From a virus, in UHGV virus genome UHGV-0041314: a stretch of DNA of 64,000 nt; one strand, written 5' to 3'. Below the pieces are notes generated by a model. That model did not search any database, had not been told where the DNA came from, and saw nothing but the letters and a program-made list of their open reading frames with translations. How positions within the stretch are numbered: position 1 is the stretch's first letter; every line of letters begins with the position of its first letter. Below are positions 23,728-46,358 of this stretch, one piece after another. The translations under genes were made by a program, and so were the position numbers.

Positions 23728-24513
23728 ATGGGTATTGTAAAAATCATCAATGGCGATATCTTTGCAGCATTTGATAAAGGTAAGTTTGACGTCATCGGTC
23801 ACGGTTGCAACTGTATGAACTTAATGGGTGCAGGTATCGCTGACAAGATTTCTAAACTTTACCCAAAAGCATATGAGACTGATACAGAAGTTTATCTGTA
23901 TGCAGGTGGAATAGGCCACAAGCCCTGTGAGAATTTACTAGGCAATTTCTCTGTAGCACGTTTAAAACAAGGCCGTATAGCTAACCTTTACACTCAGCTT
24001 AAGACTGGTAAAGATGCCCGATACAGTGCTTTAGAGTCATCTTTGAAACAGCTTAACAGATACTGTGAAGTCAATCAGTTGAAGAAAGTCGGGTTACCTA
24101 TGATTGGTGCAGGTATCGGTGGGCTAGACCCTCAAGCCGTCACAGTTATCATTAATCAGGTGATGAAGAGTGTAGATGTTTATCTGTATGTCTACGAAGG
24201 AGAGATGTACCACAAGTTACGCTCAGGTTGGAAGAACTACTGTGAGCCAGAATACTTTGCAGGTGTAGTAACGTTCACAGATGATGCAGTTACCCTCTTC
24301 AGACGAAGAAAAGGTAAGATACATCAAAGTAACCCTCCGGTTGAGAAGATGTCTCTAAGTAACGCTCTAGTTACCCACCTGTCGAAGGGCAATCACAGGA
24401 TAGCCGTAACATTTGGCAGTGATGCAGATACATATATCTATGCAAGAACTGATGAGGATATCGAGACGGTCTTCTCTTCATCGGAAGTTACCTTCTTAGA
24501 CGCAAAGAACTAA
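23728..24513 (+). CDS. macro-domain (ADP-ribose binding/processing) protein
   Basis: GDIF...DVIGHGCNCMNLMGAGIADKI and LPMIGAGIGGL resemble the macro-domain Gly-rich motifs. Confidence 0.5.
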   Translation: MGIVKIINGDIFAAFDKGKFDVIGHGCNCMNLMGAGIADKISKLYPKAYETDTEVYLYAGGIGHKPCENLLGNFSVARLKQGRIANLYTQLKTGKDARYSALESSLKQLNRYCEVNQLKKVGLPMIGAGIGGLDPQAVTVIINQVMKSVDVYLYVYEGEMYHKLRSGWKNYCEPEYFAGVVTFTDDAVTLFRRRKGKIHQSNPPVEKMSLSNALVTHLSKGNHRIAVTFGSDADTYIYARTDEDIETVFSSSEVTFLDAKN

Positions 24514-24590
24514 GAAACTCTGTATAATATTCACAATATACTAAGCCTTTCTTATCTGGTAAATTTTTCAGGTAAGGAGGGCTTTTTTAT

Positions 24591-24780
24591 TTCAGGATTG
24601 TGCAGGTAGAGTTCCGGACAGAAATCTGTAGAGAAAATTTTGAACTCCAAAGAGAAAATTCATTTTCAAACTGTGCAGGTAATCTCCAAAGAGCTTTTTC
24701 ATTTTCAAAACGTGCAGACCCCGCTCAGGTCGGGCAAGAAAAATCATTTTAGAATTGTGCAGGTAGGTGGGTGCAGGTGG
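24591..24780 (+). repeat. direct-repeat cluster (TGTGCAGGT core with CATTTTCAAA companion), iteron-like
   Basis: GTGCAGGT-type core at ~24599, 24672, 24712 (CGTGCAGAC variant), 24756 and 24770; CATTTTCAAA-like at ~24661, 24699, 24745. Confidence 0.45.
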
Positions 24781-24941
24781 GGATGTCGCCATTTCTCACA
24801 AGGCTACCACATCTGGAAATAAAAGTCAACAGAAAAATTTGTAGCGGATTGAAAAATAATTCTTGATTGTAGTTCTGTTTTGTGGTAGTCGCGTGCGCCC
24901 GTTTCATTACAGTTTTTGCAAAAATATTTTTAAAATTCCTA

Positions 24942-24970
24942 TTGACTCCTCGGCTATGGTTATTTAATAT
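24942..24970 (+). promoter_or_regulatory. sigma70-like promoter for the small-gene array
   Basis: TTGACT - 17 bp - TAATAT, about 50 bp upstream of ATG 25021. Confidence 0.5.
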
Positions 24971-25020
24971 TTGCATCAGACGGGCAAGCCAGCCCACTTC
25001 CTAAACTGGAGAACTGAAAA

Positions 25021-25227
25021 ATGACTTACTACCGTGAATTAATGGTTACAACTAACGTTAACACAAAGGTAAAACGTTTTTACATGAAAATCTGTGGCGT
25101 ATGGTCCAGAATATCAGAAGCCGACTATTGCAACTATGTAGAAACGGCTATTAATTCTAATTGCTACCTTACAAGAAACACTAAGAAATTTACAAGGCAG
25201 ACAGCGATTTACTACTACGACAAATAA
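25021..25227 (+). CDS. small hypothetical protein (68 aa), cassette-flanked array gene 1
   Basis: ATG directly after conserved leader CCTAAACTGGAGAACTGAAAA; sigma70-like promoter upstream. Confidence 0.5.
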   Translation: MTYYRELMVTTNVNTKVKRFYMKICGVWSRISEADYCNYVETAINSNCYLTRNTKKFTRQTAIYYYDK

Positions 25228-25315
25228 AGTACTTTACAGGGGGCTTAAAAGCTGATATCTTAAGCCCCAGATAAAGAGCTTTACTAAATTAACCCTTAAA
25301 CTAGGAGATTCAAAA
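25228..25315 (+). repeat. type-A intergenic cassette (PeSL-like)
   Basis: AGTACTTTACA-GGGGCTTA...TAAGCCCC-AGATAAAGAGCTTTAC...CTTAAACTAGGAGATTCAAAA-ATG; TTTACA - 17 bp - TAAAGT spans the stem-loop. Confidence 0.6.
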
Positions 25316-25696
25316 ATGGCTTATCGTGCACCGAAATTCATCAACAAAGACAACTTCCGCAACGCACTGGAGAAGTCACTTGATGAAAAATTTAACGGCA
25401 AATTGATTGTTGTTCACGCATTCAATTTTAAGTATGATATTAACGGGAATAAAATCAACCATTACACGGCAACCATGTTAGATGGTACGCTATCAAGTGA
25501 AAAAGCCGTACTGAATGCACTTGCAGGACGTGGTAAAAACCTGATAAGATGCGATAAGAGACGTTATCAGGGTGGCGCATATGGTTACGACGATGCTGTT
25601 TACCATCTTGAAAATATGGGCTATCATGTAGAAAAAGCTGGAGTGTCTCAAATAATCGGTAGTGATGGTTATGTGACAATCTTCAAAATTAAATAA
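25316..25696 (+). CDS. small hypothetical protein (126 aa), array gene 2
   Basis: type-A cassette and leader CTTAAACTAGGAGATTCAAAA before ATG. Confidence 0.5.
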   Translation: MAYRAPKFINKDNFRNALEKSLDEKFNGKLIVVHAFNFKYDINGNKINHYTATMLDGTLSSEKAVLNALAGRGKNLIRCDKRRYQGGAYGYDDAVYHLENMGYHVEKAGVSQIIGSDGYVTIFKIK

Positions 25697-25781
25697 AGTA
25701 CTTTACAAGGGGCTTATAGTTCGATAGAGTAAGCCCCAGATAAAGAGCTTTACCACTCAATCCTAAATTGGAGATTCTAAA
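25697..25781 (+). repeat. type-A intergenic cassette
   Basis: near-identical copy with loop variant. Confidence 0.6.
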
Positions 25782-26072
25782 ATGGCTATTATCAAAAACG
25801 TTGTAATTCCTGCAAAAACTCGTGATGACGCTCGCATCATGGCGAAAAAGTTAGGCGGGAAAGTTGTTGACAACGGAAAACAATCTACTGTAAGATGGGG
25901 CGTGAAGACTGATAGACAGTTGAAGTTAAAAAATTCACCAATAAACCTTTTTACATGTGTAAACACTATTGGGAAGACAAATGTATACACGAAAAAGGCA
26001 TATATTAGACGCGTAGCCTTAACATCCCCCATTCGTACAATGAGAGGTTATGCAAAACTGAAAATTAACTGA
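25782..26072 (+). CDS. small basic hypothetical protein (96 aa), array gene 3
   Basis: type-A cassette upstream. Confidence 0.5.
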   Translation: MAIIKNVVIPAKTRDDARIMAKKLGGKVVDNGKQSTVRWGVKTDRQLKLKNSPINLFTCVNTIGKTNVYTKKAYIRRVALTSPIRTMRGYAKLKIN

Positions 26073-26160
26073 TAAAGTACTTTACAGGGGGCTTAAAAGC
26101 TGATATCTTAAGCCCCAGATAAAGAGCTTTACCACTAAATCCTAAACTGGAGATTCAAAA
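26073..26160 (+). repeat. type-A intergenic cassette
   Basis: near-identical copy of 25228 cassette. Confidence 0.6.
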
Positions 26161-26673
26161 ATGAAAACTGTAGACGCTACCTTTGAAGTTGTAAAAGAAA
26201 AATTCACCATTATCTATGAAGCTGTTAATTGCTTTGAAGCAAGCCATAATCTTGATAATTGGGAATTTACAGATGACCATCAAGGCGGTGTGACTGTTAA
26301 AAATCCTAACTGCCAGCATAATGGATTTAAATATGCAATCCCTTTACATTACAGCCTTAAACAGCTTTCAAGTGACTATGCAAAACAAGGACGGGAAAAT
26401 CCATCAAAAGAGGCTTACACTAGCTTACAGAAAGAACTAGAAAGAGATTTAGAGGCTTCAGAGTATAACATTGCCGCGAAAGTTGTAGATGCAAATGGCA
26501 ACACGGTTTTAGATAGCTTTTATATTGGTTATGCTTTCGACTGGTGCTATAGTGACGTCGACGATTTAGATGACAGACTTAAAGAGGAAGTGAACAACGC
26601 AGACGCAGAATCTGAAGTATTAGAACGCTTGGAATCATTAAAAGATTCAGTGATGAATATCTTTAAGGACTAA
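26161..26673 (+). CDS. hypothetical protein (170 aa), array gene 4
   Basis: type-A cassette upstream. Confidence 0.5.
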   Translation: MKTVDATFEVVKEKFTIIYEAVNCFEASHNLDNWEFTDDHQGGVTVKNPNCQHNGFKYAIPLHYSLKQLSSDYAKQGRENPSKEAYTSLQKELERDLEASEYNIAAKVVDANGNTVLDSFYIGYAFDWCYSDVDDLDDRLKEEVNNADAESEVLERLESLKDSVMNIFKD

Positions 26674-26760
26674 ATAGACCTCTTTACACGGGGCTATCAA
26701 GCTGATAAGATAGCCCCAGATAAAGAGATTTATCAACTATCCTAAACTGGAGATTCAAAA
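26674..26760 (+). repeat. type-A intergenic cassette (variant stem GGGGCTATC/GATAGCCCC)
   Basis: same architecture, compensatory stem changes. Confidence 0.55.
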
Positions 26761-27057
26761 ATGAAATTATCAAATAAAGTCCGTGAAAATCTAAGCAAGT
26801 TACTTAATAAAATTGATTTCATTGAAACATCAAGGAATAGTCATGATGTTATGGAATGGTTACACGGAAAAATCAAAGGCCGTCGTGTAGTGATTTGCTT
26901 ATGGAATAGTTGCAGGGAATATAAAAAACCTGTATTACAAGTCAATATCTATGATGATACTTTCAAAAGCCCTGTAAAGTCTAAAAGCGATTTATTAGAA
27001 TCCTATGAGATAACTGTAAATGGCAAAGTATCACGTAAAGAGGAAACACCATGTTAA
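26761..27057 (+). CDS. small hypothetical protein (98 aa), array gene 5
   Basis: type-A cassette variant upstream. Confidence 0.5.
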   Translation: MKLSNKVRENLSKLLNKIDFIETSRNSHDVMEWLHGKIKGRRVVICLWNSCREYKKPVLQVNIYDDTFKSPVKSKSDLLESYEITVNGKVSRKEETPC

Positions 27058-27383
27058 TGACTGGTATCACTGCAATCATTGCCATTTTAGCGCTATATAA
27101 GGCATATAAAGCCTATAATCTAGCAAATAAGGCAATCACACAGCAGGTTAGCAATAACCTTGTAGAGAGCTTTCTAGGGCGTCTCAGTGATGAGCAAATA
27201 AAGCGGCTAGAGATGAGCTTCAGATTCAAAGCGAAAACCTATCAGATAAGTGACATCTTCAAGGATGATTTCCAGTTAGTCGATGATTATAATTCTCTGA
27301 TAAATGCTTTAAATATCAGTGACTTAAAAGACTACTACGCTGTAATTGTTCAAGAATTGAGCAAACGAAAACAAAACTGTTGA
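27051..27383 (+). CDS. small membrane protein (110 aa, N-terminal TM), array gene 6
   Basis: no cassette; start overlaps upstream stop; AAAGAGG RBS. Confidence 0.45.
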   Translation: MLMTGITAIIAILALYKAYKAYNLANKAITQQVSNNLVESFLGRLSDEQIKRLEMSFRFKAKTYQISDIFKDDFQLVDDYNSLINALNISDLKDYYAVIVQELSKRKQNC

Positions 27384-27473
27384 CACTGGTTTTTAGATAG
27401 ACTAAATTACACATCAACGGGGAGGGAATAACCTTCCCCACTAAGTAAAGTCCTTAAACTAGGAGATTCAAAA
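27384..27473 (+). repeat. type-B intergenic cassette (PeSL-like)
   Basis: TTGACA - 17 bp - TAAATT, then ACATCAACGGGGAGGGAATAACCTTCCCCACTAAGTAAAGTCCTTAAACTAGGAGATTCAAAA-ATG. Confidence 0.6.
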
Positions 27474-27632
27474 ATGTTTTGTGCAGGTGATAAAGTTGTC
27501 TGGAATGATATAGATGACGGTTTATGTACGAAAGTTGTTGTTATCTTAGAAATTGATTATATCACTGGTGTTGCAACTGTAGCAGATAATGATATAATCT
27601 TTGATGTCTTAATTAGTGAACTGTCAAAATAA
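27474..27632 (+). CDS. small hypothetical protein (52 aa), array gene 7, not in ORF track
   Basis: type-B cassette and leader precede ATG; my translation MFCAGDKVVWNDIDDGLCTKVVVILEIDYITGVATVADNDIIFDVLISELSK. Confidence 0.4.
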   Translation: MFCAGDKVVWNDIDDGLCTKVVVILEIDYITGVATVADNDIIFDVLISELSK

Positions 27633-27657
27633 AATCCTTAAACTAGGAGCTTTTAAA

Positions 27658-27930
27658 ATGTACACTACTAACAACGGTCGCAATCTAAACGTAACCCTAC
27701 GCCACTATGTGAACGGTGTAATGCACTTCGAGGATTTACAGGCTGAACAACACATCTTAGATTGGCAAGTAGCAGGACTCCAAAAAACTGCCACAGGATA
27801 CGGGAAAAAGATTCCAACTAGCTGGAAAGTATACTACGAAGGACGTTTGCGCAGAATTTATCAGGATGTATGTAGCAATAGCGCAACAAGTTACATCATG
27901 GTAAAAGGTAAAAAATTGCACTTAGTATAA
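27658..27930 (+). CDS. small hypothetical protein (90 aa), array gene 8
   Basis: track ORF 27616 starts at GTG inside upstream ORF; ATG 27658 follows conserved leader. Confidence 0.5.
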   Translation: MYTTNNGRNLNVTLRHYVNGVMHFEDLQAEQHILDWQVAGLQKTATGYGKKIPTSWKVYYEGRLRRIYQDVCSNSATSYIMVKGKKLHLV

Positions 27931-28015
27931 AGTACTTTACAAGGGGCTTATAGTTCGATAAAGTAAGCCCCAGATAAAGAGCTTTACCACTAAATCCTAA
28001 ATTGGAGATTCAAAA
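27931..28015 (+). repeat. type-A intergenic cassette
   Basis: near-identical copy. Confidence 0.6.
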
Positions 28016-28420
28016 ATGGCTATTAATAATCGTGAGTTGTCAATCTTAAAAGCACGTTTGACCGTTAACCGGATTAATGTTATTACATCATCAGCACCTG
28101 ATGAGACATTGCACAATATTATCGGGAAGATTCAAAGTGTTATCTTAGACGTTGAAAGCGTAAAAAACTCACTAGCTGACGTTGCAGCAGGTATCACGCT
28201 AGACGGTGCACAATATGAAATGGCTGACATGTTAGGCAAATCAAAGGTAATGAATAAAGAGCTTGATTTAAAAATGTTTCGTTTTGCCGTGAAAGTGTGG
28301 CTATCTGTCGAGTATGACGCAAATTTTGCAATCGCTGATTTTTTTGCAACATGGTTGCAACGTAATTTAACAAATCATGATTTTCGTGATATCTGTGACG
28401 CAATTTACGCAGAACTATAA
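28016..28420 (+). CDS. hypothetical protein (134 aa), array gene 9
   Basis: type-A cassette upstream. Confidence 0.5.
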   Translation: MAINNRELSILKARLTVNRINVITSSAPDETLHNIIGKIQSVILDVESVKNSLADVAAGITLDGAQYEMADMLGKSKVMNKELDLKMFRFAVKVWLSVEYDANFAIADFFATWLQRNLTNHDFRDICDAIYAEL

Positions 28421-28523
28421 AAATTCCTCTTGATTTTGGTTTTTAAAACAAGTAAATTACTAATCAACGGGGAGGGAATGACCTTCCCCACTAAGTAAAG
28501 TCCTTAAACTAGGAGATTCTAGA
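28421..28523 (+). repeat. type-B intergenic cassette
   Basis: TTGATT - 17 bp - TAAATT then GGGGAGGGAATGACCTTCCCC hairpin and conserved leader. Confidence 0.6.
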
Positions 28524-28727
28524 ATGGCTATCATTAACGGCTTAAACATTGAAACTACTCACATCAAAGATATTAAAGTTGGGGATACAGTTCTTTTCCA
28601 CGGCGTAGAGAAAACTGTTACTGCAAAGGATATTAAAGAGGATTCTTTCATGGGTAGAACTCTCTTCGGCGATTCTTATTGCTTAGGTTATCTTGCAGTT
28701 TTAAAAGTTGTCAAAAATAATCGTTAA
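28524..28727 (+). CDS. small hypothetical protein (67 aa), array gene 10
   Basis: type-B cassette upstream. Confidence 0.5.
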   Translation: MAIINGLNIETTHIKDIKVGDTVLFHGVEKTVTAKDIKEDSFMGRTLFGDSYCLGYLAVLKVVKNNR

Positions 28728-28812
28728 AGTACTTTACAAGGGGCTTATAGTTCGATAAAGTAAGCCCCAGATAAAGAGCTTTACCACTAAATCCTAAACT
28801 GGAGATTCAAAA
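28728..28812 (+). repeat. type-A intergenic cassette
   Basis: near-identical copy. Confidence 0.6.
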
Positions 28813-29376
28813 ATGAAATGCTATCACGGAACTACCCTCAAAAACTTTGTAAACCTGCTGAATGGTGGCGACAAGCCGGAAGGAATCTGGAACTGCTCCT
28901 ACATGGACGATTGTTTCTACGTTTACCCAATGAACAAGGTTATCAAAACGGAATGTCTGGAAGATGAGGAAGATTCTTATATCCGTGAACGCTGCATTCA
29001 AAACGCTTTAGAGTCTGGACTTATTACGGCAGCTTTCCAAATGGAAACGCAGGACGTGATTGTCATTGAAATGGATATCCCAGAGGAAGAGCTAGAGGAC
29101 GATTATTCTTGTGACAATATGAGCGATATCGCCAGTTTTACCGGATACTTTGATAAGGATTGGATTGTTGGCCTTCACTCGACGAAATTTAGTGCAATAT
29201 ATGCGCCTTTCTTTGTACCTGATACAACTAACCGTAATTTAGGAGATATTGACGAAGATTTGTTAAGTATGGCGAAAATTGTGCAGAATAGCGGGGATTG
29301 CTCTGTGTATTGTGACCTACTGGATAAAATCACGGCAAACCTCACAGAACGCAATTTAAAAGACTTTTTAGGTTAA
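28813..29376 (+). CDS. hypothetical protein (187 aa) with ADP-ribosyltransferase-like N-terminal HGT motif, array gene 11
   Basis: type-A cassette upstream; MKCYHGTTLKNFVNLLNGG resembles the YHGT motif of diphtheria-toxin-class ARTs as I recall it; FYVY about 30 aa downstream; acidic IEMDIPEEE further on. Confidence 0.35.
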   Translation: MKCYHGTTLKNFVNLLNGGDKPEGIWNCSYMDDCFYVYPMNKVIKTECLEDEEDSYIRERCIQNALESGLITAAFQMETQDVIVIEMDIPEEELEDDYSCDNMSDIASFTGYFDKDWIVGLHSTKFSAIYAPFFVPDTTNRNLGDIDEDLLSMAKIVQNSGDCSVYCDLLDKITANLTERNLKDFLG

Positions 29377-29439
29377 TCAGTACAAAGACACCAACTTCCA
29401 ACTTAAGGCCCGTACAGGGCCATTTAGAGGGCTTAAACC

Positions 29440-29673
29440 ATGTTGACAACCATTTATCTCATCCTTTCTATTTGTAACGGTCATTCATGCGATTTTAAAG
29501 GGCTTGAGGAGTTTACAGGGAGTAAAGAAAATGCTATTCAAGTTTGCCAGATAGCAAGACAAGACTATCCCGCCAGTGATGACATTCAATGCTACTTTAA
29601 GACAGAAGATGAAGACGGTATCTATTTTGACAGTGTCGATGGTCAATATGAAATAATTATAGAAAAAGACTAG
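29440..29673 (+). CDS. small Cys-containing hypothetical protein (77 aa), array gene 12
   Basis: own short leader with hairpin GGCCCGTACAGGGCC and AGAGGG RBS. Confidence 0.45.
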   Translation: MLTTIYLILSICNGHSCDFKGLEEFTGSKENAIQVCQIARQDYPASDDIQCYFKTEDEDGIYFDSVDGQYEIIIEKD

Positions 29674-29764
29674 ACAAGCCTGATAAAAGTCTGTAAATTG
29701 TCAATCAACGGGGAGGGAATGACCTTCCCCACTAAGTAAAGTCCTTAAACTAGGAGATTCTAAA
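29674..29764 (+). repeat. type-B intergenic cassette
   Basis: TAAATTGTCAATCAACGGGGAGGGAATGACCTTCCCC hairpin and conserved leader. Confidence 0.55.
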
Positions 29765-30106
29765 ATGGCTTATGTAACTGTAATTACCGATAAAGAGAAT
29801 TCATCTTGGTCAACTCAGGTTAGTGATAAGATGTCACCTATGCAGTGCCTAAAATACTTTGAGCAGTGGAACAAAGGTGAGGATGTAAGCCCCTTTCAGG
29901 TAATGCAAATCATCCATACAGATAACGAAGGGAATAAAACGACACTGAATAGTGAGTACTACGCAAGCCGTTTTGAAACGAGAAGTAAAACAATGAAGAT
30001 TTTACGTGAATCCGGCTATTCTCATATTGCCGCGCTAATCTGGGATGACCTGCTAAAAAGCCAGCGTATCAGCTATGTAAAACCTGAAAAAATATTCATC
30101 AGTTAA
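29765..30106 (+). CDS. hypothetical protein (113 aa), array gene 13
   Basis: type-B cassette upstream. Confidence 0.5.
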   Translation: MAYVTVITDKENSSWSTQVSDKMSPMQCLKYFEQWNKGEDVSPFQVMQIIHTDNEGNKTTLNSEYYASRFETRSKTMKILRESGYSHIAALIWDDLLKSQRISYVKPEKIFIS

Positions 30107-30328
30107 TCAACAACTTACAAAAAACTTTTAAAAAGATGTTGACAATCCCTCTTGACATTGGTAACTTTGTTCGAGGGGGTTTATCTAAAAGGGATTAACT
30201 TAAAAGATTCTTTATAGATAAACTTAAAAAATTGCTTGCAATCAGATATCAAAACAAGTAAATTACTCATCAACGGGGAGGCAATAACCTCCCTACTAAA
30301 TAAAGTCCTTAAACTAGGAGATTCAAAA
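30107..30328 (+). repeat. type-B intergenic cassette with extended upstream region
   Basis: two TTGACA hexamers near 30136-30160; TTGCAA - 17 bp - TAAATT; hairpin GGGGAGGCAATAACCTCCC. Confidence 0.5.
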
Positions 30329-30859
30329 ATGAACAAGTTCAAAGCTATCAACTACATTCGCTCAAATAGTGTCATGTCTAAGCCTGTTAAGGATACCTAC
30401 GAATTTCGTTGCAATGGTGAACACTTTGCTACCATCACCAAATCAAACAACGGGGCTTATTATATCCATCGTCGTAATGTTTCTACGGTTGTAGTTTCTA
30501 ACTTTATGCAAGCTGTAGCGGAACTCCTCCCGCTCTTCTTAGAAAAGTATGCCGTACAGTGTGAAAGTGTTCGTGAATGCACTAAAACAGTGTTAAACGG
30601 TTATCGTATGGCTTATGAGCGCTCTTTAAAGAATCTCAATAAATACTACAAAGCGCCGGAAGGCACTTCATCCACAGCCTACGGGGTAGGGGGCTTCAAT
30701 GTCAGCCTTTACGAAGTGGAAGAAATCGAGCTTTATGACCATCGCCCAAATGGTTACGCTAAGACACTGGGAGAGGGGTTAATGCTGAATATCAAGAACT
30801 TAGAAAAAACTTTAAGAGAAATTGAAAAAGATATTGACGAGACAATCAAAAGTCTGTAA
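30329..30859 (+). CDS. hypothetical protein (176 aa), array gene 14
   Basis: track ORF 30236 begins inside the cassette; ATG 30329 follows conserved leader. Confidence 0.5.
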   Translation: MNKFKAINYIRSNSVMSKPVKDTYEFRCNGEHFATITKSNNGAYYIHRRNVSTVVVSNFMQAVAELLPLFLEKYAVQCESVRECTKTVLNGYRMAYERSLKNLNKYYKAPEGTSSTAYGVGGFNVSLYEVEEIELYDHRPNGYAKTLGEGLMLNIKNLEKTLREIEKDIDETIKSL

Positions 30860-30924
30860 ATTGTCAATCAACGGGGAGGGAATGACCTTCCCCACTAAGT
30901 AAAGTCCTAAACTGGAGATTCAAA
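30860..30924 (+). repeat. type-B intergenic cassette
   Basis: same hairpin and leader. Confidence 0.55.
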
Positions 30925-31188
30925 ATGGAACACGTAGAACTGACCACACTCTTACAAATCGCAACCGACAAGGAAGACGTAGCATTATTTCACCGTATCG
31001 AAAGTGATTTGTTCAATGGTGAAATCATCAAAGAATCTTACGAAGTTGTCGGATTCAAAGATGGTAAAGCATTTGGCTTTTTTGACCTCGACAAAAGCAA
31101 AGCGGTTACAAAGTACGATGTTCTATCTTGTGAGATTCTTACAAAATACAACGAAAAAAGGCTTGCAACATACGCCAACATGCAGTAA
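30925..31188 (+). CDS. small hypothetical protein (87 aa), array gene 15
   Basis: type-B cassette upstream. Confidence 0.5.
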   Translation: MEHVELTTLLQIATDKEDVALFHRIESDLFNGEIIKESYEVVGFKDGKAFGFFDLDKSKAVTKYDVLSCEILTKYNEKRLATYANMQ

Positions 31189-31253
31189 ATTACTAATCAA
31201 CGGGGAGGGATGACCTCCCTACTAAATAAAACCTTAAACTAGGAGATTCTAAA
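31189..31253 (+). repeat. type-B intergenic cassette
   Basis: hairpin GGGGAGGGATGACCTCCC and conserved leader. Confidence 0.55.
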
Positions 31254-31502
31254 ATGGCTACTATCCGCGCAACTGTTAACGAATTCGGCTTTTGCTCTCT
31301 GGATGTTAAATTTGACCTTGTAGGTACTGATAACGCCTTTGAGATGGTGAAAGGTCTTATCAGTCAGACCATCAAAGACTATAACCCTTCTGATGAGTTC
31401 TGGAAAGAAACAAAACAGGAAGTTCTCAAAGATGGTTATTCTTATCACTATTGGGGTGAAAAAATTGTCTCCCTGTACTACGACAAAGAAGGCACTAACT
31501 AA
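31254..31502 (+). CDS. small hypothetical protein (82 aa), array gene 16
   Basis: type-B cassette upstream; two hairpins then T-run downstream. Confidence 0.5.
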   Translation: MATIRATVNEFGFCSLDVKFDLVGTDNAFEMVKGLISQTIKDYNPSDEFWKETKQEVLKDGYSYHYWGEKIVSLYYDKEGTN

Positions 31503-31540
31503 ACGCCGCAACGGGGCTAAATAGCCCCAGATACCTTTAC

Positions 31541-31562
31541 AGCCCCTTAAATGGGGCTTTTT
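31541..31562 (+). terminator. rho-independent terminator ending the small-gene array
   Basis: AGCCCC-TTAAAT-GGGGCT then TTTTT; preceded by second hairpin GGGGCTAAATAGCCCC. Confidence 0.6.
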
Positions 31563-31929
31563 ACGTCTTATCAAATCTCTATACAATCCCTTTCCTTCCC
31601 TTTCCAGAATCTATCCCACTGATTCGATAGAATCTATCTCGTACCTTAAAAGCAATAACTCTATAGTCTACTCTATAACCTCTTATCAAATCAACTTAAA
31701 TAAAAGCCAATAACCCCAGAAAGGGGATGGCCCATTTAAACGCTCTATAAAGCCCTATAACAGCCTTATCAACCTAACTTAAGGGATTGCATTAACCCAC
31801 TCTAAAAAGCCCTTTATAAAGCTTCCTATAGCCTCAAAAGAATCTTATAAGGGTGTAAGCTTTATCATCTCGTTAGTTATCTTGTGAATAACTCAATAGC
31901 CCTTGATAGTCTCTAAAAAGTATGTTATA

Positions 31930-33070
31930 GGGGCTGTTAAGTTACTTTGAAGTTACGTAAAAGAGGCTATAAAGTTACGTAAATGCTAGCCCCCTTAACA
32001 TTTTCTTAACAATTTCTTAACAATCCCTACATAGTTATGCTTTTAAGGCACTTGTTAGCAACTTGTTAGCCCCTTGTTAAATCTCTGTTAAGACCACGTA
32101 AAAGCCTTGTAAGAGTCTTTAGCATAGCCTTTAAAGCCTCTGTAAAGCCCTATAAATAGGTGTCTGTATAGCTGGGGTGTAATTACTAGGAAGAGACTTA
32201 AAAGAGCTTATAAGGAGCTATAGAGAGCTTTTAAGAGGGCTATTTAGAGAATCACTAAGAGAGAGAGGGAACGATAAGAAAAGAGATAGTGACCATGTTA
32301 ATAGCTTGTTAAAAAGATTAAACACTTGTTAGGAACTTGTTAATTATCTTAACAAAATAACTCTTAAAAATTAACTTGTTAGCTCTTGTTAGTCATCTGT
32401 TAAGACTCTGTAAAGCCTATGTATCAACTGTTAAGAACTTGTTACACCCTTGTTAGTTCTGTTAAGAATCTGTTAAGACCTCTGAAGAGATGTTAAGAGG
32501 ATGTAGTAGCTGTTAAGAGATTGTTAAGGATATTTTAAAATTCTGCAAAGGGATGGTAAGGGAGCTGTTAAGGGCTACCAAGCAGATATACATCTTCTAC
32601 AGATATTTTTCAGTTCCTTCAAAGACCCTAAAAAATGACTTGATAGTCCTATTTTATAAAAATTTTAAAATTCTGAATAATTACCTAGACAGTCTTTTAA
32701 AAATACAGGCATAAACAGGCTTATAAGATACCTTGTTAGTACCGTGTTAGACCTTGTGAGATAAGGTCTGTAAAGATATTCCTGTTAAGTTTGTTAAAAC
32801 AGTCTATATAGAGGCTTAGTATTTCCTAGTGAACACCTATAGATGGTATCATAGCTGACATAGAGATTAAGAGGTGTATAGGAGCTTCTAAGAGGGTATA
32901 GAGAGATGGTTAATGTGATTGTATAGGTTGTTAAGAAGGCTTGTTAGAAGAGTGTTTAGAAGGGCTATACAGAGGGGCTATTAAGACCACTAGATAGATA
33001 CTAAGATACTATATAGTACTATATAACTATATATAGAGAGTAAGCTTAAGAAGGTTGTTAAGAAGGGTAG
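31930..33070 (+). repeat. dense array of degenerate short direct repeats (core TGTTA[AG]G / CTTGTTAG) in a non-coding region
   Basis: about 28 forward-orientation copies counted by eye across ~1.1 kb; no ORF of 60 aa or more in the surrounding ~1.6 kb except a shadow ORF. Confidence 0.6.
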
Positions 33071-33169
33071 ATATTTTATTCACATATGATGGTGACCCAG
33101 AGGTTGGGACAACCGATAAAATTTTATAAAAATTAAAAAGCCCCCAATTAAGGAGGCTCTTAAGATATT

Positions 33170-33763
33170 TTAAATCAGTGTTTCCAGAACTGTTTTTAAT
33201 GATGACTTGGTTGTCTGATAAAAATGAGTAAATCCATTGTTGTTATCAAATACCTGCATCATGATATCATCTCCCTTGATTGGGTAAACTCGGATATCGT
33301 AGTGAAAACCATTAAAGACACAAGAACCATTACAGAATAAACTAAAGTCATCCACTGAGATATACTCTTCATGACCTGTGATTTTTATACAAACACCTTT
33401 ACTCGGTCTCTTAGGGTTGATATCTTCCATCACAGACATACTCTGTCCACCAAGAGAGACCATAGTGACTACTTTACGGTTCTTCTGCCTAAAGTACATC
33501 TTAACTTTCTGCAAAGTGTCTTCATAGAACGGATAAGACCTTTCTACAAAGATTCCTTCAAGTGGCTCTTTACCATTTTCAACTTCTCTATTATGCCGTA
33601 CTGCAAAGATAATTTGTTCGAACCAGTCAAGATTTTCTTCGGAGAGTGCTTCCCGAATATCACCCCAATCAAGGACTAGGTAGTTGCCTTCAACATCTTT
33701 TAAGTTATCTTTTTCCATATCTATTATACCATTATCGTAAAACTTGGTAATCTGGGACTGCAA
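33170..33763 (-). CDS. hypothetical protein
   Basis: track ORF starts at TTG; alternative in-frame ATG at 33718; no clear RBS for either. Confidence 0.3.
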   Translation of the reverse strand: MQSQITKFYDNGIIDMEKDNLKDVEGNYLVLDWGDIREALSEENLDWFEQIIFAVRHNREVENGKEPLEGIFVERSYPFYEDTLQKVKMYFRQKNRKVVTMVSLGGQSMSVMEDINPKRPSKGVCIKITGHEEYISVDDFSLFCNGSCVFNGFHYDIRVYPIKGDDIMMQVFDNNNGFTHFYQTTKSSLKTVLETLI

Positions 33764-43429: not shown

Positions 43430-43506
43430 CTCTGTTTAGCTCAGCTTGGTAGAGCGTTCCGTTTGGGGCGGTAAGGCCGGAGGTTCAAGTCCTCCAACAG
43501 AGACCA
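43430..43506 (+). tRNA. tRNA-Pro (anticodon UGG)
   Basis: cloverleaf by eye: acceptor CTCTGTT/AACAGAG, anticodon loop TTTGGGG, T-arm GGAGG-TTCAAGT-CCTCC, CCA encoded. Confidence 0.65.
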
Positions 43507-43513
43507 AATTAAT

Positions 43514-43591
43514 GTTCCAGTAGACAAAATGGTAAAGTCACCACTCTTTCAAAGTGGATATTTGAGGGTTCAAATCCCTTCTGGAACGCCA
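43514..43591 (+). tRNA. tRNA-Glu (anticodon UUC)
   Basis: acceptor GTTCCAG/CTGGAAC, anticodon arm CCACT-CTTTCAA-AGTGG, CCA encoded. Confidence 0.7.
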
Positions 43592-43596
43592 GTTTT

Positions 43597-43672
43597 GACA
43601 GAAGACCAATTGCAGCAAACTTAATCTTATTCATCTGAAGGTAAATCGGACAAAGAAGAGATTTGGTCTGGT
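43597..43672 (+). ncRNA. structured RNA element, bulged-helix family member 1
   Basis: CAGAAGACCAA...TTGGTCTGG long-range pairing with 2-nt bulge enclosing ~55 nt A/U-rich sequence containing CAGCAA. Confidence 0.3.
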
Positions 43673-43682
43673 CATTAAGAAT

Positions 43683-43759
43683 TGCGGGTATAGAGAAAGG
43701 GCGTCTCACATGTCTCATTAGCATGGTATCGGCAGGTTCGACTCCTGCACCCGCCTCCA
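43683..43759 (+). tRNA. tRNA with CAU anticodon (Met or Ile2), irregular 5' half
   Basis: T-arm GCAGG-TTCGACT-CCTGC and CCA clear; anticodon arm CATGT-CTCATTA-GCATG; 1-72 mismatch; extra nt before D-stem. Confidence 0.45.
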
Positions 43760-43763
43760 AATT

Positions 43764-43832
43764 TACAGAAGACCGTTTACAGCAATATTTATTAAATTTT
43801 TAGCGGAAAAATTGAAAGATACGGTCTGGTAA
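43764..43832 (+). ncRNA. structured RNA element, bulged-helix family member 2
   Basis: CAGAAGACCGT...ACGGTCTGG pairing; conserved TTTACAGCAA after 5' strand. Confidence 0.3.
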
Positions 43833-43842
43833 TACTAAACAT

Positions 43843-43919
43843 GGTTAGGAAGCACATAAGGTATGTGCGGTCGCCTGTTAAGCGAATGGCACAGGGTTCG
43901 AATCCCTGACTAACCGCCA
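43843..43919 (+). tRNA. tRNA-Asn (anticodon GUU)
   Basis: acceptor GGTTAGG/ACTAACC, anticodon loop CTGTTAA, T-arm CAGGG-TTCGAAT-CCCTG, CCA. Confidence 0.7.
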
Positions 43920-43988
43920 AATTTAGGAGAGAAGCGATTGCTCACCGATTTGTAAGGTGCAAGTCCTTAGCCTGAATAGAAATTAAAT

Positions 43989-44076
43989 GTGTCGTTATCC
44001 CGTAGATGGTAGCGGTGGGGACTGTAAATCCCTTGTCATTGAGACTCGGTAGGTTCGACTCCTACACGGCACACCA
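43989..44076 (+). tRNA. tRNA-Tyr (anticodon GUA), long variable arm
   Basis: 88 nt; anticodon arm GGGGA-CTGTAAA-TCCCT; variable arm GTC/GAC; T-arm GTAGG-TTCGACT-CCTAC; CCA. Confidence 0.65.
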
Positions 44077-44082
44077 AATAAA

Positions 44083-44160
44083 GGTTATGTAGTTTAATCT
44101 GGTTAAAATACTCCCCTGTCACGGGAGATGATGAGGGTTCGAATCCCTTCGTAACCGCCA
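44083..44160 (+). tRNA. tRNA-Asp (anticodon GUC)
   Basis: acceptor GGTTATG/CGTAACC, anticodon arm CTCCC-CTGTCAC-GGGAG, CCA. Confidence 0.75.
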
Positions 44161-44245
44161 AATTATAATAAGTATTTCAAAATGATGTTTTGAGAGGGCT
44201 ATTTAGCCCCTCCCTTAAAGAGTTCTTACGAGTATTCTTTAAAGG

Positions 44246-44322
44246 AGCAGAAGACCAAATTCAGCAAGTTACTTAAAATTTCAAGCCAATTTAATTTTGA
44301 AAAATTTAAAACTTGGTCTGGC
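44246..44322 (+). ncRNA. structured RNA element, bulged-helix family member 3
   Basis: CAGAAGACCAA...TTGGTCTGG pairing; AATTCAGCAA after 5' strand. Confidence 0.3.
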
Positions 44323-44332
44323 TCAACAAATT

Positions 44333-44468
44333 TACAGAAGACCGTTTACAGCAAACTTTAAACAATCTATTTCTCCGGTAAAGAAAAGGCGAAGGTTCGA
44401 TTCCTTCACTCGGCAGATGTCGAGTTGGTGTAATGGTAGCACTTAAGATGATAAACAACGGTCTGGTA
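44333..44468 (+). ncRNA. structured RNA with circularly permuted tRNA-like module inside a long bulged helix (Y-RNA/YrlA-like candidate)
   Basis: outer helix CAGAAGACCG (44335-44344) / CGGTCTGG (44459-44466); inside, T-arm GAAGG-TTCGATT-CCTTC then acceptor 3' strand ACTCGGC, 4-nt turn, acceptor 5' strand GTCGAGT and D-arm-like TGGTGTAATGGTAGCAC. Confidence 0.4.
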
Positions 44469-44475
44469 ATTATCT

Positions 44476-44604
44476 TTGTAGATAAGTTATTAAGCTTACC
44501 TGTGAGTATGCGACCACAAAGGGTGAAAGGGTAAATTCTAGATTTAAACCCAACAAGGCACATCGCTACAGACCTTAAGCAAGTCTGGGTAGCTTATCTA
44601 CAAA
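44476..44604 (+). ncRNA. structured RNA candidate enclosed by a 10-bp long-range helix
   Basis: TGTAGATAAG (44477-44486) pairs with CTTATCTACA (44595-44604); internal CAGACC...GTCTGG hairpin. Confidence 0.25.
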
Positions 44605-44615
44605 GATGATTTAAT

Positions 44616-44691
44616 GGAAGTGTAGCAGAATGGTGATGCGGCAGACTTTTAATCTGACAGGCGATGGGTTCGAATCCCTCCACTTCTACCA
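44616..44691 (+). tRNA. tRNA-Lys (anticodon UUU)
   Basis: acceptor GGAAGTG/CACTTCT, anticodon loop CTTTTAA; weak T-stem; CCA. Confidence 0.55.
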
Positions 44692-44695
44692 ATAT

Positions 44696-44772
44696 GGTTC
44701 AGTCGCAGATAAGGTAATGCAGGGGTTTCATAAGCCCTATGAATGTGGGTTCGATTCCCATCTGAACCTCCA
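44696..44772 (+). tRNA. tRNA with CAU anticodon (Met/fMet/Ile2)
   Basis: acceptor GGTTCAG/CTGAACC perfect; anticodon arm GGGGT-TTCATAA-GCCCT (G-C rich); T-arm GTGGG-TTCGATT-CCCAT; CCA. Confidence 0.65.
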
Positions 44773-44773
44773 A

Positions 44774-44849
44774 GCTGGTATAGTTAAGAAGGTTATAACA
44801 CTCCCCTGATAAGGGAACATCGGTGGTTCGATTCCACCTACCAGTACCA
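44774..44849 (+). tRNA. tRNA-Ile (anticodon GAU)
   Basis: anticodon loop CTGATAA; T-arm GGTGG-TTCGATT-CCACC; CCA. Confidence 0.7.
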
Positions 44850-44864
44850 ATTTCAATAAAGTTG

Positions 44865-44893
44865 TTGACATTGAGATGTGACGACTTTATAGT
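44865..44893 (+). promoter_or_regulatory. sigma70-like promoter inside the tRNA cluster
   Basis: TTGACA - 17 bp - TATAGT. Confidence 0.55.
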
Positions 44894-45187
44894 AACTGAA
44901 AATGATTCAGTATATGTATAATTCAAACACCAATACATGAGCGTTAGACGTAACACAATGTGGGGAAATTTGTTGTACATATTCTGAATAGTTTTCGTTG
45001 CGTAGCGTCTATTTTGCAAATTTAAAATAAATGCAAACGACAATGTTTTTCTGGCAGTAGCTTGATAGGCTAAACACCAGTGAGGTCTTCCAATCCCTCA
45101 TCAAAGAATTTGGCGTACTAGCCCACGGTATGATTAATAAGGTGGGCATCTTTAAGGGCTTTCTAAGAGAGTCTTTAAAGATAATTA

Positions 45188-45269
45188 CGGGGCGTATCTC
45201 AGCGGTCTTCTAAACCGCCGTTAACCGAGTAAGTGGAGTATGCGGGTTCGAGTCCTGCCGCCTCGACCA
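45188..45269 (+). tRNA. tRNA-like gene with irregular 5' half; anticodon undetermined (possibly UCU)
   Basis: canonical T-arm GCGGG-TTCGAGT-CCTGC, acceptor 3' strand and CCA; D/anticodon region does not fold as a standard cloverleaf by eye. Confidence 0.35.
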
Positions 45270-45412
45270 ATTTAGTTAGCAGATTGCTTAGACGACCTTA
45301 TCGGGTCTCCGTGTAAGGAGGTGGTCTGTATCTCATGTTTTCCAGAACATGTAAATAATCTGAGAAGGGGCTTTACAGTGTTGCGAAAATACGGTAAGCT
45401 TCGAATTACAGT

Positions 45413-45495
45413 ATGGGACGATGTTAAGACTCTAAGGCATGAGCAACGGCCTCCAAAACCGTTTCAAAGGGGTTCAACTCCTCCGTCCCATGCCA
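45413..45495 (+). tRNA. tRNA-Trp-like (anticodon CCA) with ~7 extra nt between acceptor and D-arm
   Basis: 3' two-thirds canonical (ACGGC-CTCCAAA-ACCGT, T-arm, GTCCCAT, CCA); 5' acceptor strand ATGGGAC displaced upstream. Confidence 0.4.
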
Positions 45496-45508
45496 AAGTC
45501 TTATTAGG

Positions 45509-45596
45509 GGTAGGTAGCGGCTAATGGTAGCCAAACTGTCTTGAAAACAGTTGCCACTGTAGAGATACGGTGAGGGTTCGACTCCTTTACTTACCG
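45509..45596 (+). tRNA. tRNA-Ser (anticodon UGA), long variable arm
   Basis: anticodon arm ACTGT-CTTGAAA-ACAGT; T-arm GAGGG-TTCGACT-CCTTT; 3' end encodes CC only. Confidence 0.6.
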
Positions 45597-45754
45597 CCTA
45601 ATAAGATTTACACCGTCCATGCTTGCTCGCATTTTCGGTTTATCCCTCGTGTATTGGTTGTACACACTGATAAAGCACCTAGTAGGTGTCACGGAGAAGA
45701 GATAATATCAAGCTCTCCAAAGGTTCTAGTCACCGGATTAAACAAGACTATGCA

Positions 45755-45776
45755 AAGACCTAAATAGGTCTTTTTA
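45755..45776 (+). terminator. rho-independent terminator inside tRNA cluster
   Basis: AAGACC-TAAATA-GGTCTT then TTTT. Confidence 0.5.
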
Positions 45777-45854
45777 GAGGGCTTCTAAGGTTATTACAGC
45801 TTGTTGTGGAACCTTGTTGCTTAGGTTCTTAGAAGTTCTCTAAAAAGATTTAAT

Positions 45855-45932: not shown

Positions 45933-45939
45933 AATTAAT

Positions 45940-46015: not shown

Positions 46016-46021
46016 AACATT

Positions 46022-46097: not shown

Positions 46098-46103
46098 ATT
46101 AGT

Positions 46104-46178: not shown

Positions 46179-46185
46179 AATTAAT

Positions 46186-46262: not shown

Positions 46263-46263
46263 A

Positions 46264-46356: not shown

Positions 46357-46358
46357 AT

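Follow-up and report, generated by a model that had tools for sequence, protein, structure and literature searches.

A small-gene array with two families of repeated cassettes of predicted promoters and stem-loops in a Felix-O1-like phage

Described phage elements and the array of UHGV-0041314

In T4-like phages, promoter-early stem-loops (PeSLs) combine a strong sigma-70 promoter with an upstream terminator stem-loop and a Shine-Dalgarno sequence followed by ATG, and they accompany insertions and deletions in hyperplastic regions (Arbiol et al. 2010, PMC2839356; Comeau et al. 2014, PMC4122927); PeSL mini-circles as well as promoter and terminator activity have been shown experimentally (PMC2839356; PMC4122927). 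In the cluster K mycobacteriophages, an asymmetric ribosome-site motif, the start-associated sequence (SAS), stands directly 5' of a subset of genes, and about half of the sites have, on their 5' side, inverted repeats that are imperfect, have a variable spacer and follow a lineage-specific consensus, the extended form (ESAS) (Pope et al. 2011, PMC3203893). Here we describe an array of 16 small genes at positions 24940-31565 of the virus genome UHGV-0041314, analysed in a window of 64,000 nucleotides (the whole stretch of DNA used here). Two families of ~90-bp intergenic cassettes, type A and type B, each hold a predicted promoter and a predicted stem-loop and end in a common leader that leads into the start codon. 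We propose, with a probability of roughly 80%, that the array comprises accessory early genes of an Ounavirinae phage, and that the two cassette families act both as expression signals and as patches of homology for the exchange of single genes.

Parts of these repeats have been noted before in relatives. The Felix O1 paper (Whichard et al. 2010, PMC3185647) contains a 57-bp direct repeat, CTTTACATGGGGCTTAAAAGTCTGTAAAGTAAGCCCCAGATAAAGAGCTTTACCACT, which corresponds to type A, and a 39-bp direct repeat, TTGACACTGGTTTTTAGATAGATTAAATTACACATCAAC, which corresponds to the type B promoter; both are listed only between genes 15/16, 19/20, 18/19 and 20/21, are given no promoter, hairpin or recombination reading, and do not appear in the promoter list of that paper (PMC3185647). 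The 2015 announcement of phage Mordin likened the 26-bp leader to the cluster K SAS (PMC4611695). The wV8 and VpaE1 genome papers hold nothing on these repeats, and in the searched literature, outside of which lie many subscription journals, we found no description of the cassette families, of a promoter nested in a stem, of covariation or of cassette-bounded shuffling in Ounavirinae. Early transcription of Felix-O1-like phages is itself unexplained in the literature (PMC3185647, PMC4690856).

The best megablast match of positions 24900-31600 among GenBank phages is Escherichia phage MET-P1-301 (Andersonviridae; Ounavirinae; Felixounavirus), with 92.9% identity across the entire block, and 256 records of Felix-O1-like myoviruses from Escherichia, Salmonella, Shigella and Citrobacter were matched in all. 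Judged by its sequence, the window is part of a virulent Felix-O1-like myovirus (Felixounavirus, ~88 kb) and not of a T4-type phage. We note that a 25-gene tRNA array, typical of Felix-O1-like phages, lies on the + strand at 43430-48640; Felix O1 has 22 tRNAs (PMC3185647).

The original prediction had placed a 16-gene array with two repeated cassette families at 24940-31565, and this was confirmed by the open reading frames (ORFs), by a direct-repeat search and by fuzzy motif scans of the window, for which dinucleotide shuffles served as the control. The genes, numbered w1 to w16 in their order, span 25021-31502 on the + strand and encode proteins of 52-187 residues. They are accompanied by six type A cassettes (5' of w2, w3, w4, w5, w9 and w11), six type B cassettes (5' of w7, w10, w13, w14, w15 and w16), one variant type B cassette and one bare leader. 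The direct-repeat search returned two families of 99-100 nt with five copies apiece, together with shorter families for the parts in common, and the leader CCT(T)AAACT(A)GGAG is present in 14 copies, all on the + strand and only 5' of start codons. All type A, type B and leader motifs of the window are confined to 25000-31250, and no match to the long motifs is expected from its dinucleotide shuffles. The claim that nearly every gene is preceded by leader and cassette can be made more exact: the leader stands before 14 of the 16 genes and a promoter-bearing cassette before 13, w8 having the leader only. Neither is found before w6, which overlaps w5, or before w12, which has an unrelated spacer of its own. 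In accordance with the predicted lack of similarity among the encoded proteins, paralogs were not found by all-vs-all BLASTP among the 16. Two of the three claimed mis-starts were reproduced, in that the starts of w8 (GTG 27616) and w14 (TTG 30236) in the longest-ORF listing differ from the leader-associated ATGs, and the 52-residue gene said to be missed (w7) is listed only below a cut-off of 60 residues.

Like PeSLs, the cassettes are repeated intergenic elements with a sigma-70-like promoter (predicted here for both types), a GGGG...CCCC stem-loop, and a Shine-Dalgarno sequence and start codon at the 3' end (all 13 cassettes). They are likewise clustered among small genes of unknown function, the boundaries of indels and replacements map to them, and the consensus varies between sub-lineages in both systems. 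Unlike PeSLs, the array belongs to an Ounavirinae phage (~88 kb), has no sequence relationship to them, occupies one locus per genome instead of many hyperplastic regions, and uses two cassette families with one leader. The stem-loop, which lies upstream of the promoter in a PeSL, here encloses it (type A) or follows it in the 5' untranslated region (type B), no terminator U-tract is present, and activity is predicted from sequence. The array would thus work like a PeSL array but is not one: the "PeSL-like hyperplastic array" of the original prediction is supported as an analogy and not as membership, because the phage, a member of another family, is Felix-O1-like and not T4-type.

The leader shares with SAS its asymmetry, its place directly 5' of a subset of genes and its single orientation, and the ESAS features of imperfect inverted repeats with a variable spacer and a lineage-specific consensus also have counterparts in the array. 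The sequences differ (GGGATAGGAGCCC for SAS, CCTAAACTGGAG here), SAS sites are scattered over the genomes of temperate siphoviruses of an actinobacterial host whereas the sites described here form one 6.6-kb block, and SAS sites have no associated sigma-70 promoter and are not linked to gene shuffling (PMC3203893). In addition, the ESAS authors found little support for an RNA hairpin (PMC3203893), whereas compensatory changes are seen in the cassettes.

In the complete 89.6-kb genome of MET-P1-301, every type A, type B and leader match lies within the homologous block. A scan of 2.9 million IMG/VR contigs found the type A pattern only in contigs of ~54-94 kb, most of them 81-94 kb, and the Felix-O1-type anchor gene was present in 29 of the type A contigs, with an identity of 92-97% in most of them. 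One locus of a far clade (L022) is 100% identical to Citrobacter phage Michonne (Mooglevirus), and Erwinia phage phiEa104 (Kolesnikvirus) has homologous cassettes, with stems GGTGTTTAT/ATAAGCACC, at the homologous locus. By these matches the cassette system spans at least Felixounavirus, Mooglevirus and Kolesnikvirus, and it is probably present in Suspvirus. No such cassettes were found in two distant relatives (L029 and L030, 40% identity) of the macro-domain gene that lies upstream of the array.

Architecture of the type A and type B cassettes

The type A cassettes of the window, all on the + strand, lie at 25228..25315 (cassette 1, with the leader variant CCTTAAACTAGGAG), 25697..25781 (cassette 2), 26073..26160 (cassette 3), 26674..26760 (cassette 4), 27931..28015 (cassette 5) and 28728..28812 (cassette 6). 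Type A spacers were gathered from 18 related loci as well as from the window, 101 in all, of which 93 are unique. When 92 unique copies are aligned, no variation is seen in CTTTACA, in GGGG, in the first two bases of the -10 hexamer (T and A), in CAGATAAA or in GGAG, and the loop is variable. The spacing between -35 and -10 is always 17 nt, and the last T of the -10 hexamer (TATCTT, TAAAGT, TAAGAT, TAGTAT, TACAGT or TATGAT) is conserved in at least 90% of the copies. Because -12T, -11A and -7T are the key -10 positions for sigma-70, the conservation of TA...T at a fixed spacing is the pattern expected of a host sigma-70 promoter.

A hairpin of GGGGCTTA and TAAGCCCC, spanned by a TTTACA-17 promoter, had been predicted for type A; both are present, and the stem is larger than was proposed. 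The predicted fold is an interrupted stem of 19 pairs in three segments, in which (T)AAAGT is paired with GCTTT(A), the CTTTA of the -35 region with the TAAAG of AGATAAAGAG, and GGGGCTTA with TAAGCCCC, so that the promoter TTTACA-17-TAnnnT is nested inside. The fold energies range from -20.7 to -27.6 kcal/mol and the z-scores from -3.0 to -5.4, with cassette 5 at the one end (dG -20.7, z -2.98) and, at the other, cassette 4 (dG -27.6, z -5.35), a diverged sub-variant (GGGGCTAT/ATAGCCCC, GAGATTTATCAA) with compensatory changes in its stem. Among 83 unique copies, 97.2% of the cells are paired, as compared with 31-57% in slid controls, and one pair switches between G-C and U-A. With four phiEa104 copies included, 96.7% are paired (32-56% in slid controls) and five pairs have both partners changed (G-C has become U-A in GGTG/CACC, for instance), which only one of 500 shuffles equals. 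Compensatory changes in this stem come from three genera. A test restricted to the inner stem gave shuffles equal to the observed values, because that stem hardly varies; the comparison became informative only once the structure was extended and the Erwinia copies were added. The -35 region would double as promoter element and stem arm, which could explain why CTTTACA and AGATAAAGAG are both frozen.

One of the type A pairs is U-G in 35 of the 83 copies and another in 77 of the 83. Since G.U pairs would be A.C mismatches on the opposite strand, the helix belongs to the sense strand, most simply as RNA. Transcripts from the type A promoter would start just 3' of the stem, near the junction of CCCC with AGAT, and the long stem would therefore be present only on read-through RNA from the upstream gene, where it may serve the upstream message as a 3' stabiliser or as an RNase III-type processing site rather than as a terminator. 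RNase III processing hairpins occur between the early genes of phage T7. The likeness to them is structural only, and consists of a ~20-bp interrupted hairpin with internal loops, located after a stop codon on a multi-gene early transcript; the predicted type A geometry (19 bp, three helical segments, internal loops) fits the irregular RNase III site of ~20 bp. To our knowledge, the T7 sites carry no promoters.

The type B cassettes, also on the + strand, lie at 27377..27473 (cassette 1), 28421..28523 (cassette 2), 29668..29764 (cassette 3), from 30236 onwards within the w13-w14 spacer (cassette 4), 30831..30924 (cassette 5) and 31163..31253 (cassette 6). The predicted order of a promoter followed by a hairpin was found in this family, with hexamers broader than had been given (TTGnnn, TAnnnT). 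In 88 unique segments, the -10 hexamer, which ends 4 nt before ATCAAC, reads TAnnnT in 83 (TAAATT in 43, TAAAGT in 19, TAGTAT in 11 and TAATAT in 7), and the -35 hexamer exactly 17 nt upstream starts with TTG in 74 (TTGCAA, TTGACA, TTGACT, TTGACG or TTGATT). The spacer between them is conserved at 32-74% only, and ATCAAC at 92-100%.

Cassette 1 matches the sigma-70 consensus at 10 of 12 positions; its -35 TTGACA (27380-27385) overlaps the stop codon of w6, and its -10 TAAATT (27403-27408) is followed by ATCAAC, the hairpin GGGGAGGG-AATAA-CCTTCCCC and the leader. Cassette 2 has TTGATT-17-TAAATT, and the homologous site in the GenBank record of phage AYO145A is annotated "promoter", by consensus. 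The -35 TAGACA of cassette 3 overlaps the stop codon of w12, cassette 4 has TTGCAA-17-TAAATT and the hairpin GGGGAGG/CCTCCCT, and the -35 TTGACG of cassette 5 lies within the 3' end of w14. Cassette 6 has its -35 TTGCAA at 31163-31168, its -10 TAAATT at 31186-31191 and the hairpin GGGGAGG-GATGA-CCTCCCT. Several type B promoters thus extend into the 3' end or the stop codon of the preceding gene, and the stop codons TAA of w14 and w15 are located inside the -10 TAAATT of the next cassette. The first promoter of the array belongs to the variant type B cassette (24942..25020, + strand), which has an A/T-rich UP-like tract on its 5' side and is composed of the -35 TTGACT (24942-24947), a 17-nt spacer, the -10 TAATAT (24965-24970), ATCAGAC, the hairpin GGGC-AAGCCA-GCCC (24982-24995) and the diverged leader CCTAAACTGGAG (25000-25011); in most relatives this position is occupied by a canonical type B cassette.

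The type B hairpin folds in all 63 unique downstream segments (mean z -4.2), and nearly all stems begin at one offset, 6 nt from where the ATCAAC anchor begins. The stem sequences are swapped while the position is kept (GGGGAGGG/CCTTCCCC, GGGAGG/CCTCCC, GGGGC/GCCCC, GGGA/TCCC and GGGC/GCCC). When each sequence is folded separately and the pairs are aligned from the outermost inward, the pairs at depth 4 are G-C in 37, A-U in 10, C-G in 7 and G-U in 7, and those at depth 5 are A-U in 35, G-C in 7, C-G in 5 and U-G in 1. RNAalifold on a MAFFT alignment of these hairpins recovered 3 pairs only, because stem lengths differ and the MAFFT alignment ignores structure. Given the usual distance of 6-8 nt from the -10 hexamer, the start of type B transcripts would fall within ATCAAC, leaving 2-4 nt ahead of the stem. 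A 5'-terminal stem-loop of the ompA type protects mRNA from 5'-end-dependent decay, and the type B stem-loop, which resembles it structurally only in standing a few nucleotides from the predicted 5' end, might shield its mRNA in the same manner.

A different role is suggested by true PeSLs, namely that the stem-loops are terminators or attenuators and that each gene is an insulated monocistronic unit. The stems are stable, GC-rich and directly 3' of stop codons, and the GGGG...CCCC stem-loop has been shown to terminate transcription in PeSLs (PMC2839356). However, neither stem is followed by a U-run, as type A continues with AGAUAAAG and type B with ACUAAGUAAAG, and a terminator scan of this strand flags only 24543, 29192 and 31541. 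In addition, a terminator in the place of the type B hairpin, 3' of the cassette's own promoter, would abort the transcript from that promoter. We consider insulation of each gene in this way to be improbable. Intrinsic termination at the cassette hairpins was rejected for the lack of U-runs, a GC stem with a U-run being found only at 24543-24584 and 31541-31563.

The leader is common to both types. Among the aligned copies its CCT, AAACT and GGAG are invariant or nearly so, and in all 13 cassettes GGAG is followed, after ~8 nt, by ATG. The predicted leader folds pair (U)CCU with AGGA, and the phiEa104 leader CCTTAnAAAGGAAT allows CCUU-AAGG; in these models a weak leader hairpin that masks the Shine-Dalgarno sequence is possible. 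An Rfam search of 24400-33200 (E <= 1) returned no RNA family over the cassettes and only a chance small-RNA match on the upstream terminator.

The conservation of the leader well past the Shine-Dalgarno core and its occurrence only on array genes raise another explanation, in which leader and inverted repeats are binding sites for a regulator encoded by the phage or the host, that is, SAS/ESAS-like operators or translational-repressor sites that switch the whole array, with the hairpins serving as DNA or protein-binding palindromes. This would be in keeping with the likeness to SAS seen by the Mordin annotators (PMC4611695) and with the lineage-specific consensus of the ESAS inverted repeats (PMC3203893). 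However, the G.U pairs (35/83 and 77/83 in type A; depths 4 and 6 in type B) fit a sense-strand RNA helix better, the compensatory substitutions fit an RNA helix better than a DNA palindrome read by a protein, and the type B stem is replaced wholesale (GGGGAGGG, GGGGC, GGGA, GGGC) with its position kept. Regulator binding thus seems rather unlikely, and it could coexist with the expression and exchange roles that we prefer.

Gene turnover at cassette boundaries

The turnover of genes was followed in 18 related loci that have both flanking anchors, and gene content was compared among 19 Felixounavirus/Mooglevirus/Suspvirus genomes. The original prediction had named a syntenic and invariant block as the outcome that would speak against it, and the opposite was found. 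The block measures 5.3-8.1 kb between the conserved anchors, the common genes are collinear, and the gene content is distinct in all 19 genomes. Present in every genome are w5-w6, w8, w9, w11, w12 and w13; accessory genes are w1 (11 of 19), w4 (13), w7 (3), w10 (12), w14 (16) and w15 (11), and w3 and w16 are each found in 17. Elsewhere in the set, up to 14 additional ORF families (x1-x14) were called, of which several probably reflect errors of gene calling. Coverage of the window by other genomes is 83% in the block, as compared with 96% in the adjacent upstream 10 kb.

The breakpoints of these differences map to the cassettes. In the comparison with 12 close relatives, every internal homology breakpoint but one (65 of 66) is located in a spacer or cassette or no more than 12 nt from a gene end, where 25.5% are expected (binomial p ~1e-37, for events that are not independent), and the flanking high-scoring segment pairs overlap by one cassette in the subject. 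In the genomes that lack w4, the junction cassettes are chimeras with at least three distinct crossover points: L004 and L028 keep the full w3>w4 cassette, which places the crossover in the leader, the switch follows TTTACCAC in L009 and AGATAAAGAG in L023, and L018 has a w2>w3-type cassette. Such differing crossovers inside the cassettes imply that w4 was lost or gained several times. The w10>w11 cassette of L007 and L011 consists of a type A head and a type B tail joined at ACTAAAT, and the w7 indel is bracketed by a direct repeat formed by the leader before w7 and the bare leader at 27633-27657.

Paralogous cassette copies have lineage-specific bases in common, which suggests exchange among the copies: at stem position 5, the close clade has C (61 of 64 copies) and the far clade T (39 of 41), and the bases after GGAG are ATTC in one clade and mostly AATC in the other. 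Single genes are also replaced by divergent alleles between near-identical neighbours. For w3, the amino acid identity among close relatives is either ~94% or ~60%; the corresponding values are ~93% and ~53% for w11, 99% and ~75% for w14, and 90-98% and 55-63% for w16. Locus L002 is a mosaic of this kind, with 97%, 53% and 100% identity to the window for w9, w11 and w12, respectively.

The Citrobacter phages Michonne and Mordin, 99.5-100% identical, differ by a tandem w3 unit that begins at CTTTACA of one cassette, includes w3 and ends with the ATG of the following cassette. Michonne has a double cassette of 175 nt (L022:7349-7523; block 1531-1705), in which a full type A cassette ending in ATG is fused to a second CTTTACA, and which by sequence comparison represents a very recent tandem duplication of w3 relative to Mordin.

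These patterns are what ordinary homologous recombination on 20-90 bp of identity, provided by the type A and type B bodies or by ACTAAAT plus leader, would produce. Exchange through the cassettes would give rise to the deletions, insertions, replacements and hybrids observed, and would in the same way homogenise the copies within a lineage.

Alternatively, the cassettes could be expression signals kept alike by selection, with no causal role in turnover, if illegitimate indels arise anywhere and only those between genes survive. The breakpoint statistics cannot separate the site of an event from its survival, and the Michonne duplication joins ATG to CTTTACA where the two have no cassette homology. 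Selection for expression alone would not be expected, however, to leave clean parental chimeras with at least three crossover points at the junctions without w4, type A/type B hybrids joined at a common ACTAAAT/leader segment, a w7 indel bracketed exactly by two leader copies, or divergent alleles of single genes between near-identical flanks; and the clade-specific substitutions common to paralogous copies are a sign of concerted evolution, hence of exchange. We therefore regard signals without a part in recombination as a poor explanation, with a low probability.

An integron-like array, in which attC-like folded palindromes are moved by a site-specific recombinase, would also gain and lose units of one ORF plus one imperfect palindrome of ~60 nt, in one orientation and at one locus, and the Michonne junction is precise and free of homology. 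However, the crossovers are at different points in different events and are placed in ordinary homology, the stems contain G.U pairs that point to RNA and not to folded single-stranded DNA, and, in contrast to those of integrons, every cassette has a promoter of its own. In MET-P1-301 neither an integrase nor a recombinase is annotated, which is weak evidence, from annotation only, in a genome whose genes are mostly hypothetical proteins. With no fixed crossover point of the attC kind, site-specific movement is very improbable, and the integron-like reading was rejected.

In the expression and homology-patch model, host RNA polymerase would start at the 13 cassette promoters early in infection, and the functions of the array genes would be early and either dispensable or adaptive, with host takeover and counter-defence as examples. 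By reverse transcription PCR in Felix O1, the signal of genes 13, 16, 20, 21 and 22 was maximal at 5 min, and that of genes 14, 17, 19 and 23 at 25 min (PMC3185647), a timing consistent with early cassette promoters.

Several points weigh against this model. The searched literature holds no transcription start, processing or termination data for Felix-O1-like phages, and promoter use and the RNA roles are therefore inferences. The mid-positions of the type A -10 hexamer match the consensus poorly (3-5 of 6). The type A stem is strongly conserved, so that its covariation rests on few positions and on related sequences; within Felixounavirus alone, two pairs are changed on both sides, no more than in shuffles. 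Breakpoints at gene ends could in part be due to survivorship, in that an event has to be clean to be viable, and not to where recombination took place, and the Michonne junction of ATG with CTTTACA has no cassette homology. Finally, PHROGs and Pfam assigned a function to none of the 16 proteins.

A more far-reaching proposal, which we put forward tentatively and hold to be possible but not probable, is that type A is a dual-coded module of ~60 nt, long preserved in at least three Ounavirinae genera, read as a DNA promoter for the gene downstream and, on read-through RNA, as a long stem-loop that processes or stabilises the message of the gene upstream, and that together with the type B module and the leader it makes up a plug-and-play socket array. 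A gene placed between two such cassettes would be transcribed, stabilised and translated at once, and the array would be the homologous-recombination analogue of an integron for early counter-defence or host-takeover genes, among them the candidate ADP-ribosyltransferase w11.

Gene order, flanking regions and encoded proteins

Directly upstream of the array lies a macro-domain gene (23728-24513, assigned by a domain match). The left boundary is the intrinsic terminator that closes the upstream operon (24543..24584, + strand; a 17-pair stem and a T-run), which corresponds to t13 of Felix O1 and is kept as an anchor in the 18 related loci. Between this terminator and the promoter of the first cassette, a non-coding gap of ~350 nt is occupied by three to four phased repeats of ~37-45 nt (24589-24766; core TTCATTTTCAAA(A/C)nGTGCAGGTA). 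The repeats are kept in position and sequence in Erwinia phage phiEa104, of another genus, where there are four copies (L079:3457-3601; TTTTTCATTTTCAATTTGTGCATAG); a possible function is that of operator-like or protein-binding sites through which entry into the array is controlled.

The genes follow on the + strand. The first four are w1 (25021..25227; 68 residues; PHROG 5293, function unknown), w2 (25316..25696; 126 residues), w3 (25782..26072; 96 residues, basic with an isoelectric point of 11, two allele classes) and w4 (26161..26673; 170 residues, acidic with a net charge of -17). The next two, w5 (26761-27057; 98 residues) and w6 (27051-27383; 110 residues, with an N-terminal hydrophobic helix), share 7 nt, are not separated by a cassette and are paired in all 19 genomes. 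The rare w7 (27474..27632; 52 residues) has matches in 26 GenBank phage records. The sole element before w8 (27658..27930; 90 residues) is the bare leader CCTTAAACTAGGAGCTTTTAAA (27633..27657), which has no promoter or hairpin. There follow w9 (28016..28420; 134 residues), w10 (28524..28727; 67 residues) and w11 (28813..29376; 187 residues, net charge -22, two allele classes).

The spacer between w11 and w12 (29377..29439, + strand) is of another kind. It contains no type A or type B cassette and no leader, and consists of the hairpin GGCCC-GTACA-GGGCC (29407-29421; z -1.4, not significant alone) and its own ribosome site. In most relatives the hairpin is GCCCC-ttgta-GGGGC followed by TTTT, and in the window it is followed by ATTT; as an attenuator, it may be the only one within the array. 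Across this spacer the alleles of w11 and w12 recombine independently, as in locus L002, where the two genes are 53% and 100% identical to those of the window.

Downstream of it are w12 (29440..29673; 77 residues, acidic) and w13 (29765..30106; 113 residues), and then the long w13-w14 spacer (30107..30328), in which ~125 nt of extra conserved non-coding sequence precede type B cassette 4. Two overlapping TTGACA boxes lie within TTGACAATCCCTCTTGACATTGG (30139-30161) in the extra part (30107-30235), and an additional ORF of 46 residues, x7, is found between w13 and w14 in three genomes of the Mooglevirus/Suspvirus clade. The last genes are w14 (30329..30859; 176 residues, two allele classes), w15 (30925..31188; 87 residues) and w16 (31254..31502; 82 residues, two allele classes). 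At the right boundary (31513..31563, + strand; dG -24.2, z -3.1), the hairpin GGGGCTAAATAGCCCC is followed by an intrinsic terminator, AGCCCCTTAAATGGGGCT plus TTTTT (31541-31563), which corresponds to t23 of Felix O1.

Beyond the array, a non-coding region of 1.6 kb (31565-33170) extends to a convergent gene set. It is dense in short repeats (CTTGTTAG, CTGTTAAGA and TCTTAACAA), which occur in both orientations and are often 11 nt apart, and the GenBank record of the closest relative begins within the homologous region. This region is a candidate for an origin, for a packaging site or for a genome terminus.

With respect to the encoded proteins, 15 of the 16 fall into PHROG families of unknown function, and w7 into none. 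Pfam gave no hits for the 16 except a sub-threshold BRCT match of w3 (20.3 bits against a cut-off of 21.3, residues 6-61). A strongly acidic composition is found in w4, w11 and w12, and a strongly basic one in w3. The w4 family is present in 273 GenBank records, including Erwinia, Providencia and PVP-SE1-like phages, and the w11 family in 373, including Pseudomonas, Vibrio and Erwinia phages; in a protein-database search, w11 homologs were confined to Felix-O1-like phages. Searches of PDB sequences with w11, w4 and a w11 profile returned nothing meaningful. w11 has a weak resemblance to the ADP-ribosyltransferase fold and lies ~4.3 kb downstream of the macro-domain gene that flanks the array; we take the two together as a lead towards host modification and not as a finding.

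In sum, sequence comparison confirms that the array is real, and the comparative evidence for it is solid. Although unsurprising in principle, the array addresses an acknowledged gap in the early transcription of Felix-O1-like phages, for which the locus provides a map of 13 predicted promoters in an early accessory region. Felix O1 and its relatives are widely used as typing, biocontrol and therapy phages; in the 256 matching relatives the array marks the site of strain-specific, probably host-interaction genes, and the cassettes would be natural "sockets" for gene insertion into therapeutic phages. The small proteins, at least 16 in number, make up a shortlist for toxicity, host-takeover and anti-defence screens, including the candidate ADP-ribosyltransferase near the macro-domain gene. 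Cassette-mediated shuffling is thereby extended from the T4-like phages to an unrelated myovirus subfamily with another element design, which suggests that the strategy is convergent and more general.

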